A stretch of DNA of 64,000 bases from a virus (IMGVR_UViG_3300011242_000002:160001-224000); one strand, 5' to 3'; shown: positions 2,541 to 31,600, counted from the stretch's first letter. Numbers and translations are program-made. The notes: generated from the sequence alone by a model not told the origin.

Positions 2541-2586
2541 CGGCATAAGAGGAAGGGTTAACGCCCCTCCTCTTTTTTTTTTGCCG
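2541..2586 (+). terminator. intrinsic terminator with CGGCATAA 5' flank
   Basis: GAGGAAGGG..CCCCTCCTC followed by a long T run and GCCG. Confidence 0.75.
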
Positions 2587-2588
2587 GC

Positions 2589-2614
2589 CAAACAAGGTCG
2601 TTCTTCGAACGACA
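2589..2614. repeat. 26-bp hairpin element, copy 1 (identical to 12747-12772)
   Basis: CAAACAAGGTCGTTCTTCGAACGACA; stem GTCGTTC/GAACGAC. Confidence 0.9.
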
Positions 2615-2912
2615 AAGATAATTCTAATGAGCTAGTATTACGCTACTTATCTGCTTACTTTTATAGCAAGGTTTGGAACCCTTGCCCCGAGCGTATATTC
2701 GATCGAGTGAATGACAGGAATGAATCTGAACGAAGTGAAGATGAATGAATGGCATGAATGAGGAGAATAGAAGAGCGAGTGAGGAATGAGTCTCTGACGA
2801 ATGACATCTCCAGATACTACTAGGGAAGTGGGGGACCGGGGGCAGTGGTTGGGAATATTCTTTTATGCTGGTTAAATCGTATAGATCATCCTTACACTTA
2901 ACCGGTGAACTT

Positions 2913-5506: not shown

Positions 5507-8500
5507 GTGATGAGTTTAACAAATAACTTTAAACACTTCTCTGAGCTGCCCATAGAGACAGAGATAACTAAGCGATTAATGGTGCCGGTGATCCAACGGG
5601 TATCAGAGATCGGCGCAAGCGAAACTGTATATGAAAACGTGCTGGTCCCCGCAATGGGGCTGGCGGCCGGCGTTGCCACCCACGCCTTTGACAGCGTGGC
5701 TGCAATGATGGCGTGTGATGACCTGACCCCCGGTACCGTGGTGTCGACCCGGGGCTACTTTAAACCGCTGGGACACGGTGCGGCCACCTACGACATTTGG
5801 GATTTGGACGCCTACCGTGCCTTGATCAACAACCCGGGCTGGCTACCCGATGGTGAAGAGATCACGGTCAACGGCCTGCGTTACTACGCCGGTGGCGACC
5901 ATATGCTGCGCAACAACTTGGTGGCGATCCTGCGCTTTAACGCATTGTGGGCCGGTCAGCTGGGGCTACCCGATCCGGTAAAGGACGAGGCGGAATACAT
6001 TGCTAAACGCCTGCACCACGATCACGGGATGCAGAAGGCCGTCGATTTTGCCAAGCGCGTGACCAGCGCCGGCGACCGCTCGGCAACCAGCACCAACGGT
6101 ATCGGCACCCACCGCAACATCATGCTGCATATCGAACCGGGCAACTACGTGCTGACCCACACCATCTGGATCCCGGGTTCGGTGCTGCTGGTTGGTGGCT
6201 CCATGTGGGGGACCGGCGGGCGCTACGTTGACTTCATTCCATTGAAGGCCGAACACGGCGGTTCGTTGATCAACTACGTGCGGGGCTACACCTTCATCTG
6301 GAACGGCAACCGCTACTGGCCGGGCACCGAAGAGATCCCGATTGGCGCAACCCCTGCCGAGTCCATTTATTCCGCACCGTATGTCGGTGGGATGAGCGGG
6401 ATTTCCATCAACAACTACGAAACCAGCTACGGCATGACCGACGGGGTAATCGACTACTACAAGCCGAACTACCTCAAAGGTATCAAAGGCTGTATGGTCT
6501 TTGGCGGCGCGATCTTCCACTCCTGTAACGGCGAGCGCGTGTGGATCTTTGCCCACCGCCCCGGCGTGGACTGGCTGGATTACTATACCGACGGCTGGGT
6601 GATCAGGGACTACAAGTGTAACACCCCGTTTGAGAACGAAGAGTACCAGCTCGACTTCAACGGCTCGGGCGACATCATTGATATTGATGGCGTGCAGTTC
6701 CCGGTCACCGTGGAGCTCTCGGACCCGAACGAAATGTGGGCCAAGGGCGAATACCTTAACGGGCCGCCGAAGGGGATCCGTCTGCACAACTGGGCCAGCT
6801 GGGACATCAAGCCACCGGGCGAGGGTGGGTCCAACGAGCAGATCTCCTACGTCGGTGCGGGGATGCGTATCCAGCGCGTGATCAACGGCGTGATCGACAT
6901 CTACGGCTACCGGCAGGTGCAGATCGAAGCCTCGCACTTTGAGTTTGGCCAGATCATCCTTAACCAGGGTTCTGCCTCCGTGGCCGACTGCTACTTCTCG
7001 AAGAACACCAAGATGGCCTACAACTCCATCGAGTGTCGTCCGGGCTTCTACGGCGGCATTGGTGCGGATCTGTCGCTGAAACGCTGTGAGTTCCACCGTG
7101 GTTTTGACGGCAGTCACCTGCCGGTAGAAGACGGCTACTACGACCTGGTGATCAACAACAACTTCACCGTGGTTATTGAAGACTGTTTCCAGGGCTGGGA
7201 TACCGCGGACTCTAACCAGAAGATCGGGATCACCGTCGGGCTCTATAACAAGAGCAACGACAACGTGGTCACCATCACCCCGTTACCGGGCTGGGATCGC
7301 TGGTCAGCGTACCTGTCGCAGGGCTGCACCATCGTGCGTGGTAAGATGTCGGTACAAACACGGGAAACCATGTGGGGTGGTTTCGAAGGGGTGCAGGAGG
7401 TCAACTGTACGCCGTCGAACAACAAGCGCAACTTTGACATGCCGGCTAACACCACCTACTACTACTTTGCCCAGTTCCTGGTAGACCCGGGCGATGATAC
7501 GGTCGCCCCGGACTTCATCCCGCTTGGGCGTAATCAGCGTGAACGCTTCGTGCTGGATGCGCAGGGCAACCCGACCACCGAGCGCTTTGAAGCATCCTGC
7601 TTCGTGAAACCCAACGTGCTGCACGACGACGGAACCAACCCACCGTACGAAAGCTACTTCCGTCCAGTAGCGTATTTTTACGGCGAGGATGAAACACCGG
7701 ACATCTCCACGATTCGTCTCTACCGCGGGACCTCACCGATGCAGTACGATGAGTACGTCGATCTGCCGATGATGAGCCGTGCGGCCATTGACGATTACGG
7801 AACCACGGTGTACGGGCGCAAGTGGAAGCCGAACCCGGTCGCGAAAGACACCAACCCGGATCTGACGCTGCGCAAACGTAACGTGCTGCCGGTAACCGGT
7901 AACGATCTGACCAGCTACACGGTCAAGATGCGTGCGGGTTCACCGTTAGCACTGACCGTCGATCGCGGGACGGATTACTACAACCGTCAAGAACTCGAGT
8001 ACATCGGCACGGGTGGTTGGTCGACCAACGCCGGCACGGCGGTCATTCGTGCATCCAACACCGGGGTGAACGCCGCCGACGAACAGGCCATGGCATCGAT
8101 CTGCATCTTTGACCGTCTGTTTACCACCGACGTTTACGTAAACCTGCCGGTGACCGGTGCACCGAACTGGGACGGCAGTCGGACCCTGAAGTATAAGAAA
8201 GGGGCGCGCTCCGATATTGTTCGCTCTAAAACCACGGCCCCGGAAGACGAGGATGCCACGGTCTACGATCTGATCGTGCAAACGGAGCTGCCGGGTGGGA
8301 TTGTAAAAGAGCTGTACCGCATGCTGCCCGGCGAAACGGTTACGGCCTTTTACGACGAGAAGGACGTGCTGCAGCCGGACGGTAAGACCTACCTGCCGGT
8401 CGGTGAGTGGATCATCGTGCGCGGGACCTTGAGCACCAAGGCCGACTCGGAACACCACTACATCGATGCGGAAGCGGGGGGTTACTACAACCTGCTGCCG

Positions 8501-9475
8501 GACGGGATCCATGAAACCACCATCAACTACAACTACGCTAACACCACGGAAGAGATTTACGCCGGGGTGCCGTTTAAGGCGAAGGTGGGGTCGCGGGTCA
8601 AGATTGTCCGTGGGGCGTTTAATAACGGCGATCTGAACGTCCTGGTGAAGGTCAGTGAAGACGTGCAGGATTCGATCATCAACATTCCGGTGGGGAACAA
8701 TACCACCGAGCTGGTGAAGAAGGCTTCGGGCTGGGTGATTGAATCGCAGATCAACGCGGTCGATACCAAGGTCAATTTACTGGGCACGCAACAGTATGCT
8801 GACCTGACGCCAGAGTCTGGGATCCTGAAGTACTACTGCATCCTGAACCAGCCGTTACCGGCACTCGAGGACAACCAGTGCATCTATCGCTTAACCCACA
8901 GCGTCAAGGGGCGAGCGGTACCACCAGGCAGCTACGTGCGGGTGTATCGTGACGTGGGGGCAACCTACGACGGCGAGCTTGACATCATCATTCGCCAGAC
9001 CGACGATGATGATAACGTGCAGGCGGTGTTAGCGAACCTGATTGTGCCAGGCCAGTGGGTGGATCTGATCTACGACGGCAGCAACTGGTCACAGGTGGGT
9101 AGCAACAACGCAGCCGGCAGTGGCAGCGCAGGCGGTGGGGTCGCAACGGCGAGCAATACCTACGTCATTGTGACAACGGATTGGACCTACTACGACGCTG
9201 ATACGCTGGCGCAGGGACGGTTGTTCTTGGACCACCGGTTTGCACCGGCAACCACCACGGCTGAAACGGGCCTGACGTTTGATGTCGATGCGGCGGTAGG
9301 TAGTGAAGTGTACATCAAGACCACGCTTCCTCGAGGGGTACTCGTATTGCAGACTTCAGAGGGGGAGATCAAGCGCATCACCAAGGCCGGGGTCACCCAC
9401 ATGATCAAGGTCGCTGAAGGCGGTGCACCGAGCGCGTGGTTTGTGATTGGCACTCACGCTATCCAGGCACAGTAA
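5507..9475 (+). CDS. tailspike / polysaccharide depolymerase-like receptor-binding protein
   Basis: 1322 aa; TRGYFKPLGHGAATY tailspike N-domain motif; LHIEPGNYVLTHTIWIPGSVLLVG pectate-lyase-3-like beta-helix start; beta-rich C-terminal domains. Confidence 0.7.
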   Translation: MMSLTNNFKHFSELPIETEITKRLMVPVIQRVSEIGASETVYENVLVPAMGLAAGVATHAFDSVAAMMACDDLTPGTVVSTRGYFKPLGHGAATYDIWDLDAYRALINNPGWLPDGEEITVNGLRYYAGGDHMLRNNLVAILRFNALWAGQLGLPDPVKDEAEYIAKRLHHDHGMQKAVDFAKRVTSAGDRSATSTNGIGTHRNIMLHIEPGNYVLTHTIWIPGSVLLVGGSMWGTGGRYVDFIPLKAEHGGSLINYVRGYTFIWNGNRYWPGTEEIPIGATPAESIYSAPYVGGMSGISINNYETSYGMTDGVIDYYKPNYLKGIKGCMVFGGAIFHSCNGERVWIFAHRPGVDWLDYYTDGWVIRDYKCNTPFENEEYQLDFNGSGDIIDIDGVQFPVTVELSDPNEMWAKGEYLNGPPKGIRLHNWASWDIKPPGEGGSNEQISYVGAGMRIQRVINGVIDIYGYRQVQIEASHFEFGQIILNQGSASVADCYFSKNTKMAYNSIECRPGFYGGIGADLSLKRCEFHRGFDGSHLPVEDGYYDLVINNNFTVVIEDCFQGWDTADSNQKIGITVGLYNKSNDNVVTITPLPGWDRWSAYLSQGCTIVRGKMSVQTRETMWGGFEGVQEVNCTPSNNKRNFDMPANTTYYYFAQFLVDPGDDTVAPDFIPLGRNQRERFVLDAQGNPTTERFEASCFVKPNVLHDDGTNPPYESYFRPVAYFYGEDETPDISTIRLYRGTSPMQYDEYVDLPMMSRAAIDDYGTTVYGRKWKPNPVAKDTNPDLTLRKRNVLPVTGNDLTSYTVKMRAGSPLALTVDRGTDYYNRQELEYIGTGGWSTNAGTAVIRASNTGVNAADEQAMASICIFDRLFTTDVYVNLPVTGAPNWDGSRTLKYKKGARSDIVRSKTTAPEDEDATVYDLIVQTELPGGIVKELYRMLPGETVTAFYDEKDVLQPDGKTYLPVGEWIIVRGTLSTKADSEHHYIDAEAGGYYNLLPDGIHETTINYNYANTTEEIYAGVPFKAKVGSRVKIVRGAFNNGDLNVLVKVSEDVQDSIINIPVGNNTTELVKKASGWVIESQINAVDTKVNLLGTQQYADLTPESGILKYYCILNQPLPALEDNQCIYRLTHSVKGRAVPPGSYVRVYRDVGATYDGELDIIIRQTDDDDNVQAVLANLIVPGQWVDLIYDGSNWSQVGSNNAAGSGSAGGGVATASNTYVIVTTDWTYYDADTLAQGRLFLDHRFAPATTTAETGLTFDVDAAVGSEVYIKTTLPRGVLVLQTSEGEIKRITKAGVTHMIKVAEGGAPSAWFVIGTHAIQAQ

Positions 9476-9477
9476 GA

Positions 9478-9532
9478 CGGCATAAAAGGTGTACCTCTCC
9501 CACACGGGAGAGGTACCCTTTATTTATGCTGA
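9478..9532. terminator. bidirectional terminator between convergent genes
   Basis: CGGCATAA..GTACCTCTCCC-ACAC-GGGAGAGGTAC..TTATGCTG. Confidence 0.8.
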
Positions 9533-9539
9533 TCGAGGA

Positions 9540-10943
9540 TTACTCTTCGTTACCTTTGTCGGCATCATCAGCGGGAGCAGCTTTACCGCCCACTGCTTTC
9601 TTCGCAACGGTCAGGGCAGCGCCACAGACGTTGTTTACCGCAGCTGGTACGGCCAGTACCAGCTGGTTAACACCGTCCATCATGTCACCTGGCAGCTTGG
9701 CCAGCTGGTACACGATGGTTTCCACGCCTTTCTCACTCTGCTTGTTAGCCTGGTCAGACTGGATACTCGCCTTGACGTGACGATCGACCGACTTGAGGAA
9801 GTTAGTACCCCATCTGGTGTTCTTACGAATGATGATGGCCGCATCACACACCTTGATGATAGACTGGGCGATCTTCACTGCGTCCTGTGGTGTCAGGTTA
9901 GCGGAGAATTCAACCTTACCAGAAAGCTTACCGTCATCAGGACGCTTGATGGTCGCACGTGCCTTACCGATCGCTTTGATGTGGTTACACACTTCCTGCC
10001 AGGAATCACCGCCGGTAGTTTTGTATTGCAGGTCAAACACCGCATAGCCGCCGAGCATGACTTCGGTGCGCTTAACGGTGACTTCTGGTGTGTCCTTCAC
10101 GGAAACAGTTGCGCCCGGGAATGCTGGCGGCTCCAGAGCGTCAACCAGTTTCTTCGCATCAGCAACCGTGGTGACGGCTTTCATGCGACTCAGTGCAGTA
10201 ACCACTTTACCGTTACCGTACCCACCAAGGTTGTCCATGAAGTTACCGGTCAGCGAGGAGATGACTTTCTCAAAGCCTTCGAGATCGCTTACCAGGTTGG
10301 TAGACGGTTGGCCGGACTTGGTCACCAGGAATTTATTACTAAAGGTGACTTGGGTGGAACCGGATTTACCCGCCGCGGCTTTAATTACGCCTTCCGCGCT
10401 GGCACGCATACGACCAGCTTTCAGTACCACGCGCTCGGTGTACTTGCTGATGCTCTTGCTCACCTGCTGCAGAGCGCTGAAGATACGCAGACCCAAAGAG
10501 GTCTTGGTGCTGTTCAGCGCTTCAAGACCTGCGGTGAAGAAAGCTTTAACCTCTTCTTCGTTATCAAAGCCTTCCAAACCACCGCCGATGGTAGAGACGG
10601 ACTGACCGTGGGTCAGCAGCACGTCAGACAGCTGGCCTTTCAGCAGCGCGGCGGTAGCCGGCGTCAGGCCTGCTTCGATGAAATGTTCCAGTGAAGCGGC
10701 CAGGGTATCAACGCGTTCTTGTTCCTGCGACAGCGCGGTCATGCGAGCAGACTCGTCAATCACCGCAGATTCTGCTTCTAAAACGGCCGCATCTTCCAGT
10801 GCCACGTTGCGCTCAACGACTAACACGTTGGCTTCTTCAACCGGAACCGGCTCGACGTAAACCTGATCCACAGGCACCGGGATAGCATCGGTTTGATCTT
10901 CAAATGCTTCCAGACCAATGCCTAAAATGTAGTTATTTAACAT
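9540..10943 (-). CDS. phiKZ-like internal head (inner body) protein
   Basis: Acidic N-terminal propeptide with repeated S/A/G-L-E motifs (GLE, ALE, SLE, GLE, GLE) matching phiKZ-family prohead protease sites; basic mature part. Confidence 0.75.
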   Translation of the reverse strand: MLNNYILGIGLEAFEDQTDAIPVPVDQVYVEPVPVEEANVLVVERNVALEDAAVLEAESAVIDESARMTALSQEQERVDTLAASLEHFIEAGLTPATAALLKGQLSDVLLTHGQSVSTIGGGLEGFDNEEEVKAFFTAGLEALNSTKTSLGLRIFSALQQVSKSISKYTERVVLKAGRMRASAEGVIKAAAGKSGSTQVTFSNKFLVTKSGQPSTNLVSDLEGFEKVISSLTGNFMDNLGGYGNGKVVTALSRMKAVTTVADAKKLVDALEPPAFPGATVSVKDTPEVTVKRTEVMLGGYAVFDLQYKTTGGDSWQEVCNHIKAIGKARATIKRPDDGKLSGKVEFSANLTPQDAVKIAQSIIKVCDAAIIIRKNTRWGTNFLKSVDRHVKASIQSDQANKQSEKGVETIVYQLAKLPGDMMDGVNQLVLAVPAAVNNVCGAALTVAKKAVGGKAAPADDADKGNEE

Positions 10944-12629: not shown

Positions 12630-12682
12630 ACGTATTCCACCTGCAGTGTCATAATAACGATAATACTTAGAACGGCCTCGTT

Positions 12683-12729
12683 AGGGTGAGGGGTTTGATA
12701 CCCCCCACACCCTTTTTTTTTTTATGCCG
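12683..12729 (+). terminator. terminator plus TTATGCCG flank
   Basis: AGGGTGAGGGG..CCCCCCACACCCT, T run, ATGCCG. Confidence 0.7.
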
Positions 12730-12746
12730 CCCGCCCGGCGCCCGGT

Positions 12747-12772
12747 CAAACAAGGTCGTTCTTCGAACGACA
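12747..12772. repeat. 26-bp hairpin element, copy 2
   Basis: Identical to 2589-2614. Confidence 0.9.
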
Positions 12773-13004
12773 CCAGGTGTTCTGAATCCTTTGGTTTTTT
12801 CTTTTTTATTTTTATCTGTGGATTCACTGTTGTGGACCTTAGTCCAGTAACAACAGTAATCCTCTCCTACCCTTCTTTTCTTCGGTTAAATCACCCCGTA
12901 TGTATGAAAATACATACGTATATATGTTATGTGTTATTATATTAAATTTACTGTTTTTTAGCTAAATTCAAGCGAATTTTCACTTCGCTGTAATATATAT
13001 AACT

Positions 13005-13135
13005 GGGGGGATAGGGGGGTAGGATGAGGGGGGTAGGATGATTGATGATGGTGGCAGGAGAGAGGGGGTGCAGGGGGAGAGAACCTGGAGGAAGAAGAAA
13101 GAAGGAAGGGGGGAGAAGGAAGGGGGGAAAGGGGG
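13005..13135 (+). repeat. polypurine / G-tract low-complexity region
   Basis: Many G4-G7 runs separated mostly by A/GA; few pyrimidines. Confidence 0.85.
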
Positions 13136-13286
13136 TACCGTCCAAAATCGCCCGAAATTCCGTTAAATAAAACACCTTTCACCATCCCTATAACACCCGC
13201 ACTGCCGACCACCTAAGTTCTTTTTTTTTTGAAACCGTCTTACGAGACACGTGCTTACGAGCGCATACTACAACCAGGAGTTTACC

Positions 13287-14153
13287 ATGAAGAGTTTAAT
13301 TGCCAAGATCATGTCCAACGAAAACCTGCCGGACAGCGACAGCCGGAAAAGCTACAAGCTGATCCCGGTACCGGATAACCACGAGATCGAGTTTCGCCGC
13401 CTTAACCTGAGCATCCCCGAGATGATCTTCCACGCCCTGTTCGGTGACAGCGATCCCATCACCGTCCCTTTGCAGGACAGCGGTAACGTGTACATCCTGG
13501 AGAACGGTAAAACCATCTCCACCTTTGGCAGCGCACCCCCGCCGCATACCGAGCAAGCTATCGCTGAGCAGCCAAAGGACACACCGTTTAATCAGTCGTA
13601 TTTCGATCAGCTGATGCAGCTCTTTGATCGGGTGACCGATCAGGCGCAGCCGGAAGAATATCCGTGGTTCCAGGTAGTGGCCGCCGCCTTGGCAGGTGCC
13701 CCTGCGAGCCTACCCCCAGAGGGGTTATGCGTGCCGTTTGCGATGGCCGATGGCAGGTTGACCGATCGGGCGCGTGCTTTCGTTAAAACGCTGAACAGCG
13801 CGCTGTTGAACAGCAAACCGATGCTGGCGTTGGAAGGGGCGAAACTGATCAAGGCGAACTACGTGTACCTGGTGCAGATTATCCCTGCCCCGTACGTGGA
13901 GAAGTCAGCGTATGAAACCCAGACCGCCAAAGAAGAGTTGCTGAACCGCGACATTTCCCACAGCGTGGTCAACGCCGTGCAGCGGGCGCTGAAGATGTAT
14001 AACCACGGCGCCACGTTTGCGGTACTGACGCCTGCGCTGCGCATTAGTCCTAAAGAGCGAGTCGCAATCACCGCTATCTTTAAGAAATGGCATGACGTAG
14101 ATGTCAAGTTCCGGTTTGTGGATGATCTCTGCACCCTGTTCTATTTTGACTAA
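13287..14153 (+). CDS. hypothetical protein
   Basis: AGGAG RBS before ATG 13287. Confidence 0.75.
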   Translation: MKSLIAKIMSNENLPDSDSRKSYKLIPVPDNHEIEFRRLNLSIPEMIFHALFGDSDPITVPLQDSGNVYILENGKTISTFGSAPPPHTEQAIAEQPKDTPFNQSYFDQLMQLFDRVTDQAQPEEYPWFQVVAAALAGAPASLPPEGLCVPFAMADGRLTDRARAFVKTLNSALLNSKPMLALEGAKLIKANYVYLVQIIPAPYVEKSAYETQTAKEELLNRDISHSVVNAVQRALKMYNHGATFAVLTPALRISPKERVAITAIFKKWHDVDVKFRFVDDLCTLFYFD

Positions 14154-31475: not shown

Positions 31476-31600
31476 AACCACCCCGAATATAGTGATCTGT
31501 AATAAAAAACATAATGAGTTATAGTATGTGGAGAATGCCATCTCCCATCTGGGCTAACGCCTGGATGCCGCCTGGAGATAGATTCAAACTTTTTACACCC

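Follow-up and report, generated by a model that had tools for sequence, protein, structure and literature searches.

A conserved non-coding element of phiKZ-like giant phages, predicted to be a transcription unit behind a middle-type promoter motif

Introduction

What is the role of a gene-free gap in a giant phage genome that combines an exactly repeated, hairpin-forming 26-mer with AT-rich DNA, purine-rich repeats and G-tracts? The question concerns a stretch for which the original prediction had proposed a priming or replication origin, or else a protein-docking site. It lies near the start of a 64,000-nucleotide piece of viral DNA (the window; positions are counted from its first base unless given as genome positions), which corresponds to bases 160,001-224,000 of an IMG/VR virus record of 273,301 bp and 53.7% GC. 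The record carries a 78-bp terminal repeat that looks like the assembly overlap of a circularly closed contig. The window codes for a phiKZ-type internal head protein (PF12699); its gene is a 467-aa minus-strand ORF (9540-10943), the one annotated in relatives, and its overlap with a 401-aa plus-strand ORF (9489-10694) within 9489-10943 is nearly complete, both frames being open in the relatives too.

Judged by sequence comparison, the flagged stretch is a genuine, selected non-coding element and not chance sequence, and it belongs to a small group of giant (phiKZ-like) phages. We lean, with a confidence somewhat above even, towards reading the two loci that carry the 26-mer as non-coding transcription units, each headed by a promoter of the phiKZ middle type and having the 26-mer as a cis element further upstream. 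Below we set out the evidence for this reading and weigh three alternatives: an R-loop replication origin, a regulatory leader and a DNA-level recombination cassette.

Results and discussion

Layout of the flagged stretch

The first locus begins behind the terminator of an upstream 250-aa gene (2541-2584, plus strand), an imperfect stem GAGGAAGGG/CCCCTCCTC followed by ten T (2541-2582 as read by eye) within a CGGCATAAG...GCCG clamp. A simple terminator scan did not list it, presumably because of the stem mismatch; the end of the 250-aa gene together with this terminator is 83% identical to that of Erwinia phage pEa_SNUABM_48 (hereafter pEa48). The outer clamp recurs genome-wide as CGGCATAAG ... 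TTTATGCCG around a GC stem (for example at 2541-2586 and 12672-12729), and intergenic DNA is strongly enriched, 17-67-fold, for its motifs CGGCATAA/TTATGCCG; these clamped terminators resemble the two-motif elongated terminators reported for 201phi2-1.

Behind the terminator the features that had first drawn attention are all present: the 26-mer CAAACAAGGTCGTTCTTCGAACGACA (2589-2614), an AT-rich stretch (2615-2680), eight GARTGA repeats (GAATGA/GAGTGA) within 2705-2805 and G-tracts at 2823-2853, with three to seven stops closing each of the three forward frames. The exact second occurrence of the 26-mer was located at 12747-12772, and the 273,301 bp of the genome hold exactly these two; tolerating up to three mismatches yielded only the same two sites in the window and the whole genome, and none in 100 shuffles. 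In copy 1 the sequence CAAACAAG is followed by the inverted repeat GTCGTTC-TTC-GAACGAC (2597-2613), which amounts to a 7-bp stem with a TTC loop (GAA on the opposite strand), and the minus strand indeed reads GTCGTTC-GAA-GAACGAC.

The two loci had also been presented as copies of one element. They do have a similar layout and a common module, but they are identical over no more than 31 bp, one mismatch included, and when the genome was searched with a copy-1 core profile no further copy turned up; the 'copies' are thus a shared module and not a duplication. That copy 2 might be a paralogue of this core that has diverged was also considered (blastn with word size 7 and nhmmer --max) and rejected, since only the 31-mer was recovered.

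Conservation of the copy-1 core

Conservation in relatives had been named as a check on the original prediction, and the copy-1 element (about 2589-2870) proved to be orthologous in six other records, always syntenic after the 250-aa gene. These, the only relatives found, are Salmonella phage vB_SalM_SA002 (SA002), the Erwinia phages pEa_SNUABM_37 and pEa48, and the IMG/VR contigs L008, L010 and L011; with the window lineage included, they provide five distinct element sequences for comparison. A near match to the region was found in no GenBank phage and an exact match to the 18-mer hairpin nowhere in IMG/VR; single-protein searches for the locus came back empty, a profile search returned only two already-known contigs, and none of the 119 matches to the G block in a metagenome scan was accompanied by the 5' box or the repeats.

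In the relatives the 250-aa orthologue is followed by a terminator, a GC-rich box, an A/T spacer, the inverted repeat, an AT-rich stretch, the box TTTGCCCCGGAGCG, a GAATGA-rich stretch and then GGGGGACCGGGGGCAGT (in SA002, pEa48 and the IMG/VR contigs). Compared among the relatives, the core is the best-conserved DNA of its neighbourhood, with identities of 88% (SA002 vs L010) and 90% (SA002 vs pEa48) as against 64-70% for the flanking genes. An nhmmer profile of four relatives has its sole match in our genome at 2681-2864 (E = 1.9e-12, profile positions 14-201). The core interior in the window is strongly diverged, yet its length is fixed: counted from the predicted start as far as 22 nt beyond the G block, it comes to 203-206 nt in all five lineages. 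In the window this whole conserved core, a predicted non-coding transcript of 203 nt, occupies 2666-2868 on the plus strand. The block GGGGGACCGGGGGCAGT (2830-2846, plus strand) is invariant in the window, SA002, pEa48 and L008/L010/L011, and is complementary to the conserved 5' box TTGCCCCG (2682-2689), with which a long-range pairing is predicted. The most conserved core blocks, TTGCCCCG and CCGGGGGCAG, are complementary and both invariant, and hence show no covariation. A conserved G-quadruplex was considered and rejected, as four runs of three or more G occur only in the window and the relatives have three. The core is annotated in none of the records, and neither 2541-2870 nor 12630-13290 has an Rfam match at E <= 1.

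The genes downstream of the core bring in one alternative, namely that it is a long regulatory leader (5' UTR), which would control in cis the translation or stability of the following small-ORF and lectin-like module. The next plus-strand gene indeed starts within 45-120 nt in the window (a small ORF, MQE.L., at 2913), SA002 and pEa48; no hairpin lies between the core and the 2913 ORF in the window, and the motif TATAGATC recurs 28 nt before the ATG. However, L008, L010 and L011 keep the element without any plus-strand gene downstream, element and ORF are separated in SA002 and pEa48 by a hairpin carrying the phage terminator clamp, and the recurring TATAG(A) motif suggests that the ORF has a start site of its own. 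In L010 and L011 the element sits between convergent genes, the next being the internal-head-protein gene, from which it follows that the element is not merely a 5' UTR. We accordingly regard the leader explanation as decidedly unlikely. The hairpin that follows the element in the relatives is missing from the window, so the RNA may here run on into the small ORF at 2913.

A promoter-like motif ahead of the core

Immediately upstream of the core we recognized a bipartite motif (class 2) of the form GTAWK-N4-WACWTA, N10-13, TAT(A)G, which occurs at six sites in the genome, all on the plus strand, and at none in 40 Markov-2 shuffles. At copy 1 (2635-2666) the box GTATTACGCTACTTA (2635-2649) is followed after a 12-nt spacer by TATAG (2662-2666), the predicted +1 being G2666. 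At copy 2 (12902-12931, plus strand) the box GTATGAAAATACATA is set within a palindrome (12897-12918), with TATG at both 12923-12926 and 12928-12931. The remaining sites are at window 14202, where the motif heads a neighbouring ncRNA island, and, as pattern matches, at window 31499 and genome 64,529 and 77,472; a seventh, near-identical box lies at genome 234,289. By crude ORF calls five of the six sites are at least 146 nt from the next ORF, and at 77,472 a small gene starting about 60 nt downstream was probably missed. At least three of the sites are conserved in SA002 at orthologous positions, and in the relatives a class-2 box with TACTATG stands immediately upstream of the core, although the strict pattern skips the SA002 element itself, whose spacer is slightly longer than allowed. 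In the SA002 record the base that corresponds to window 2666, the G of TACTATG, is at about 166,800. When the seven sites are aligned by hand, the cytosine of the TAC falls 18-22 nt before the G of the start motif. Every box is followed by TATG or TATAG (the latter in window copy 1), and across the genome TATG is over-represented in the interval 20-50 nt ahead of start codons.

In phiKZ, whose relatives use multisubunit RNAPs, the middle promoter consists of AAanTTACc centred near -24 and TATG with G as the +1 (PMC4666361), while a tRNA gene of 201phi2-1 is transcribed from middle promoters (PMC11512511). The class-2 motif has the same plan, with a TATG-type start preceded at about 20-24 nt by an A-rich/TAC box (PMC4666361, PMC8244752, PMC11512511), and by this analogy we take it to be a putative middle-type promoter with +1 at G2666. 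The wording of the box nonetheless differs, being GTAWK-N4-WACWTA here and not AAanTTACc. Other promoter types were sought at both loci: a canonical early-like promoter is absent from either (best scores below -6 vs 33-51 at real sites), and a host sigma-70 scan of the two gaps gave no score above shuffles.

Elsewhere, in intergenic DNA, the genome has about 27 sites of this early-like motif, a very strong class-1 consensus, TGCAGATAATTTCAnnCCTAYATTACCnAGGTG, all on the plus strand and common to SA002; they lie mostly 40-90 nt before genes (for example at window 11093, 17394, 23634 and 31573) and probably represent the early (virion RNAP) promoter class. Within 31499-31600 a class-2 motif precedes a predicted hairpin RNA of about 60 nt (CAUCUGGGC-UAAC-GCCUGGAUG), which is kept in SA002 with a compensatory G-C to A-U change and is followed at once by a class-1 promoter. 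A perfect 39-nt inverted repeat, TAGCGAGCTAACGCTAACGAGACAGGGTTTTATGACAAT, is found outside the window at genome 64578-64616 (plus strand) and, as the reverse complement, near 234360-234400; as each copy stands just downstream of a plus-strand class-2 box, the predicted transcripts would be complementary over 39 nt, and may form a sense/antisense RNA pair in trans. A third AT-rich locus (genome 234277-234378) includes an inverted repeat that is itself AT-rich and lies upstream of a gene whose start is near 234459. Here TAGTATTACGATACTTA matches the copy-1 box at 16 of 17 positions, and TTATATTAAATTTA is identical to a 14-mer of copy 2.

Predicted folds of the copy-1 RNA

With G2666 as its first base, the predicted RNA of about 200 nt would open with a stem-loop, GCAAGG-N8-CCTTGC in the DNA (2666-2685, plus strand), whose start coincides exactly with the predicted +1 and which folds both in the window and in three relatives. 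Its RNA form is GCAAGG-N8-CCUUGC for the window and, for the relatives, GCAAA(U)-N6-(A)UUUGC; both sides of pairs 5 and 6 have changed, from G-C/G-C in the former to A-U/U-A in the latter. Behind it the purine strand is predicted to form a 'ladder' hairpin (2696-2769, plus strand) with a C(GAA)G apex at 2731-2735, in which Watson-Crick steps of 2-5 bp are separated, for the most part, by 2x2 internal loops of tandem GA/AG, those checked being all in the stable Y-GA-R context. This RNA fold has a z-score of -2.76 in the window, where 2 of 200 shuffles fold as well, -2.0 in SA002 and -2.2 in L010. Between the last two there are one-base indels on both arms with the ladder register kept, and the C(GAA)G capping the ladder, the second such motif, is present in all members. 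The complementary strand of the region has no fold (z about 0), the ladder is not predicted under a DNA energy set, and the 187-nt core, taken as a whole, is no more stably folded than its shuffles (z = -0.06). Two aligners align the ladder apex differently, and MAFFT misaligned both ladder and 5' stem, for which reason the pairs given here are taken from the individual folds instead of from formal counting. The ladder could also be a by-product of the (GAAT)n repeat, which is self-pairing by nature.

These folds enter the model that we favour as follows. The copy-1 unit would consist, in order, of the upstream gene's terminator, a GC-rich box, the 7-bp inverted repeat, an AT-rich promoter region and the transcript, with the phiKZ 'middle'-type promoter (GTAWK-N4-WACWTA, and TAT(A)G about 12 nt on) placed in the AT-rich region. 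In the RNA the degenerate (GAAU)n tract would fold on itself via tandem G·A pairs, and the invariant G5ACCG5 block at its end would be able to pair with the C4 box near the 5' end. Candidate roles for such a predicted RNA are that of a protein-binding or sponge-type RNA, or of an RNA that stays hybridised to its template.

Among known RNAs, CsrB and RsmZ are protein sponges with GGA-type motifs, and the strands of (GGAAT)n satellites self-pair via tandem G·A. The GGA/GGAG-type arrays of purine motifs recall the former, from which the present RNA differs in its irregular motif spacing and in giving no match to the Rfam CsrB, CsrC or Rsm families at E <= 1; the latter are mirrored in a (GAAU)n strand that pairs with itself via Y-GA-R tandem mismatches. 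Short non-coding transcripts in intergenic gaps, as well as terminators with extended clamp motifs, are part of the phiKZ and 201phi2-1 transcriptomes (PMC4666361, PMC8244752, PMC11512511). The RNA predicted here has no sequence relation to those sRNAs, and the G·A ladder has no described counterpart there.

The 26-mer and its inverted repeat

An inverted repeat is found at the equivalent place in four relatives, as GGTCATC-TGY-GATGAC or GGTCGTCC-GGA-GTACGAC. In the alignment 94.7% of the cells pair, and one pair switches from G-C to A-U. The original prediction had drawn on the C-GAA-G triloop for an analogy with N4 and G4 hairpins; this triloop is not kept, the plus-strand loops across the five lineages being TTC, TGC, TGT and GGA. 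The N4 virion-RNAP promoters and the d(GCGAAGC) mini-hairpins of the G4/phiX174 origins are comparable to the window hairpin in its 7-bp stem with 3-nt loop and its C-GAA-G. Unlike in these systems, the loop of the upstream hairpin varies among the relatives, with no conserved central purine on the template strand; and unlike in N4, the hairpin does not form the promoter but lies a variable 21-130 nt upstream of the promoter-like box.

On the minus strand both window copies consist of the stem and CTTGTTTG, which a pattern scan calls terminator-like; the corresponding tails in the relatives are weak (CAAUUUAUA, CAAUAUUGA), and in pEa48 a minus-strand lectin-like gene comes immediately past the hairpin. 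The GC-rich box ahead of copy 2 (12726-12745) matches that of the relatives (GGCGC..CCGGT), and at copy 1 the box is cut down to GCCGGCC. Since the flanks of the two 26-mers are unrelated right up to the 31-mer, and the GC box is kept at copy 2 and mostly lost at copy 1, the 26-mer appears to be under selection, and we think that it has been retained for a sequence-specific partner and not merely through recent copying. A palindromic DNA site bound by a dimer would be expected to covary just as much, so that a hairpin function of the 26-mer is not demonstrated by the covariation. The inverted repeat being kept in all relatives, the second half of the original prediction, a protein-docking site, is possible. 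In the transcription-unit model the 26-mer would lie outside the transcript and act on DNA or on stray transcripts. Most likely it would serve a dimeric phage protein as an operator-like site, or else halt leftward (antisense) transcription that comes out of the AT-rich promoter region. We also noticed that the hairpin arm GAACGAC matches the core box CGAAYGACA in the window and L010; as the match is missing in SA002 and pEa48, we take it to be a coincidence.

The repeated module could alternatively belong to a regulatory or recombination cassette acting at the level of DNA, in which short repeats flank and shuffle cargo and the purine tracts are incidental. A precedent is the PeSL (promoter-early stem-loop), a mobile regulatory cassette of T4-type phages that is repeated between cargo genes; here, too, modules of stem-loop and promoter lie in a plastic genome region. 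The 31-bp direct repeats bracket about 10 kb of variable cargo (lectin-like modules and a 1322-aa protein), a ConA-like lectin gene has been inserted adjoining the module in pEa48, copy 2 took the place of two ORFs, and other short motifs are common to both loci and the third one at 234.3 kb. Nevertheless, unlike PeSLs, the module exists in two copies only and in this genome only, and is joined to a conserved non-coding core of 200 nt. In SA002 and pEa48, each searched whole, the inverted repeat is single-copy, which makes recombination between repeats impossible there, and the core's strong conservation, fixed length and strand-specific fold are left unexplained. We consider such a cassette very unlikely. 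As to the cargo itself, the 1322-aa protein (5507-9475) has GenBank phage relatives only in unrelated smaller phages (52% identity in Citrobacter phage Tr1 and 43% in Aeromonas phage BUCT695), and its gene looks, by this distribution, like a horizontally acquired one between the 31-bp repeats.

The copy-2 locus and the origin question

Copy 2 is lineage-specific and absent from all relatives, which at this place carry a pair of small ORFs (about 40 and 45 aa) between the 86-aa and 288-aa genes; remnants of these ORFs were not found at copy 2. The locus comprises, in order, the GC box, the 26-mer, a T-rich run, the class-2 box in its perfect palindrome, AT-rich DNA and a G-rich polypurine tract of 130 nt (13005-13135, plus strand). 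The tract is the sole 100-nt window of the genome with at least 80% purine, and includes a pure purine run of 49 nt (13087-13135) that is the longest homopurine run of the genome. The RNA predicted from it is no more stable than shuffles. In the transcription-unit reading the second locus (12747-13235) would be a newer unit with the same front module and promoter type but an unrelated, G-rich polypurine RNA.

Two further features accompany this locus. A hairpin after the terminator of the 86-aa gene (12827-12857) is kept in three lineages with differing sequence, its arms being ACTGTTGT/ACAACAGT here, TTCTGTT/AACAGAA in SA002 and CATTCTATT/AATAGAATG in pEa48. Just upstream of the 288-aa gene two CTTACGAG boxes (13239-13261), the sole plus-strand copies in the genome, correspond to two or three copies at the equivalent place in the relatives, and may be a protein-binding or translational control site.

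The purine tracts bear on the original suggestion of an origin. In its most developed form this would be an R-loop origin: transcription from the class-2 promoter would leave a purine- and G-rich transcript on its template, the phage's polymerase-associated RNase H would trim it to a polypurine primer for the phage DNA polymerase, and the inverted repeat and AT-rich stretch would aid opening, dock an initiator or limit the bubble. At both loci the promoter-like motif does stand directly upstream of purine-rich non-template DNA. By hybrid-minus-duplex energy (a proxy, with nearest-neighbour parameters entered by hand) the copy-2 tract is by far the most hybrid-favouring 150 nt of the genome, the lowest value being -60 kcal/mol per 150 nt, about 8 sd below the mean, and copy 1 ranks in the top 0.08% of 60-nt windows. 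Retroviral PPTs are polypurine primers, of which the AAGAAAGAAGGAAGGGGGGA-type runs of copy 2 are reminiscent.

The T4 origins likewise use middle promoters and R-loops, and oriF(uvsY) and oriG(34) resemble the present loci, as predicted, in placing a promoter-like motif before a hybrid-prone transcript (PMC3016281). The genetic context is alike in that a 509-aa frame of this genome encodes an RNase H domain and no DnaG-type primase domain was found in the genome. ColE1 RNA II and mitochondrial CSBII are of the same class as the T4 R-loop origins and, as here, have G clusters on the non-template strand. In contrast to oriF/oriG, ColE1 and CSBII, the AT-rich DNA here is upstream of the putative promoter, and no AT-rich unwinding element lies downstream of it. 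Chimalliviruses have been reported to lack an identifiable primase, and RNA-DNA hybrids could supply their replication-initiation sites (2026 preprint, PMC13648698). Given this report and the absence of a detected DnaG-type domain here, an R-loop origin keeps some plausibility.

Against it, the strongest tract, that of copy 2, is missing in every relative and it is copy 1 that is conserved, though the SA002 copy-1 element ranks only sixth by hybrid energy. An R-loop zone needs composition, and not base-level conservation of 88-90%, a fixed length and a covarying 5' stem-loop. Moreover, the copy-1 G clusters are at the far 3' end, away from the start, cumulative GC skew has no signal or extreme at 162-173 kb, and the same promoter type also heads ordinary structured-RNA genes. 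All told, we hold an R-loop origin at these loci to be unlikely. If true, it would be, as far as our searches showed, the first mapped origin for the nucleus-forming phage family, and would give a handle on how replication starts inside the protein nucleus of phages reported to lack a primase, a question raised in PMC13648698.

An iteron-type origin, as in lambda and plasmids, was considered as well and rejected, the repeats being unphased and an initiator gene not adjacent. The GARTGA repeats lack the helical phasing that is a hallmark of iterons, with spacings of 4, 9, 25, 13, 21, 7 and 15 nt in the window and 9, 31, 4 or 4, 4, 23, 4, 4 in the relatives, and the neighbouring genes have no replication domains (no Pfam match, lectin-like, internal head protein).

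Implications

SA002 and pEa_SNUABM_37/48 are cultured isolates, so that the start site, the size of the RNA and the presence of an R-loop can be tested directly. The cataloguing of non-coding RNAs in giant phages is only beginning. To this the locus offers a searchable promoter class, apparently devoted largely to non-coding units, together with a conserved and previously unannotated predicted RNA of about 200 nt that would adopt an unusual, strand-specific G·A-paired fold, and, at copy 2, its lineage-specific polypurine counterpart.
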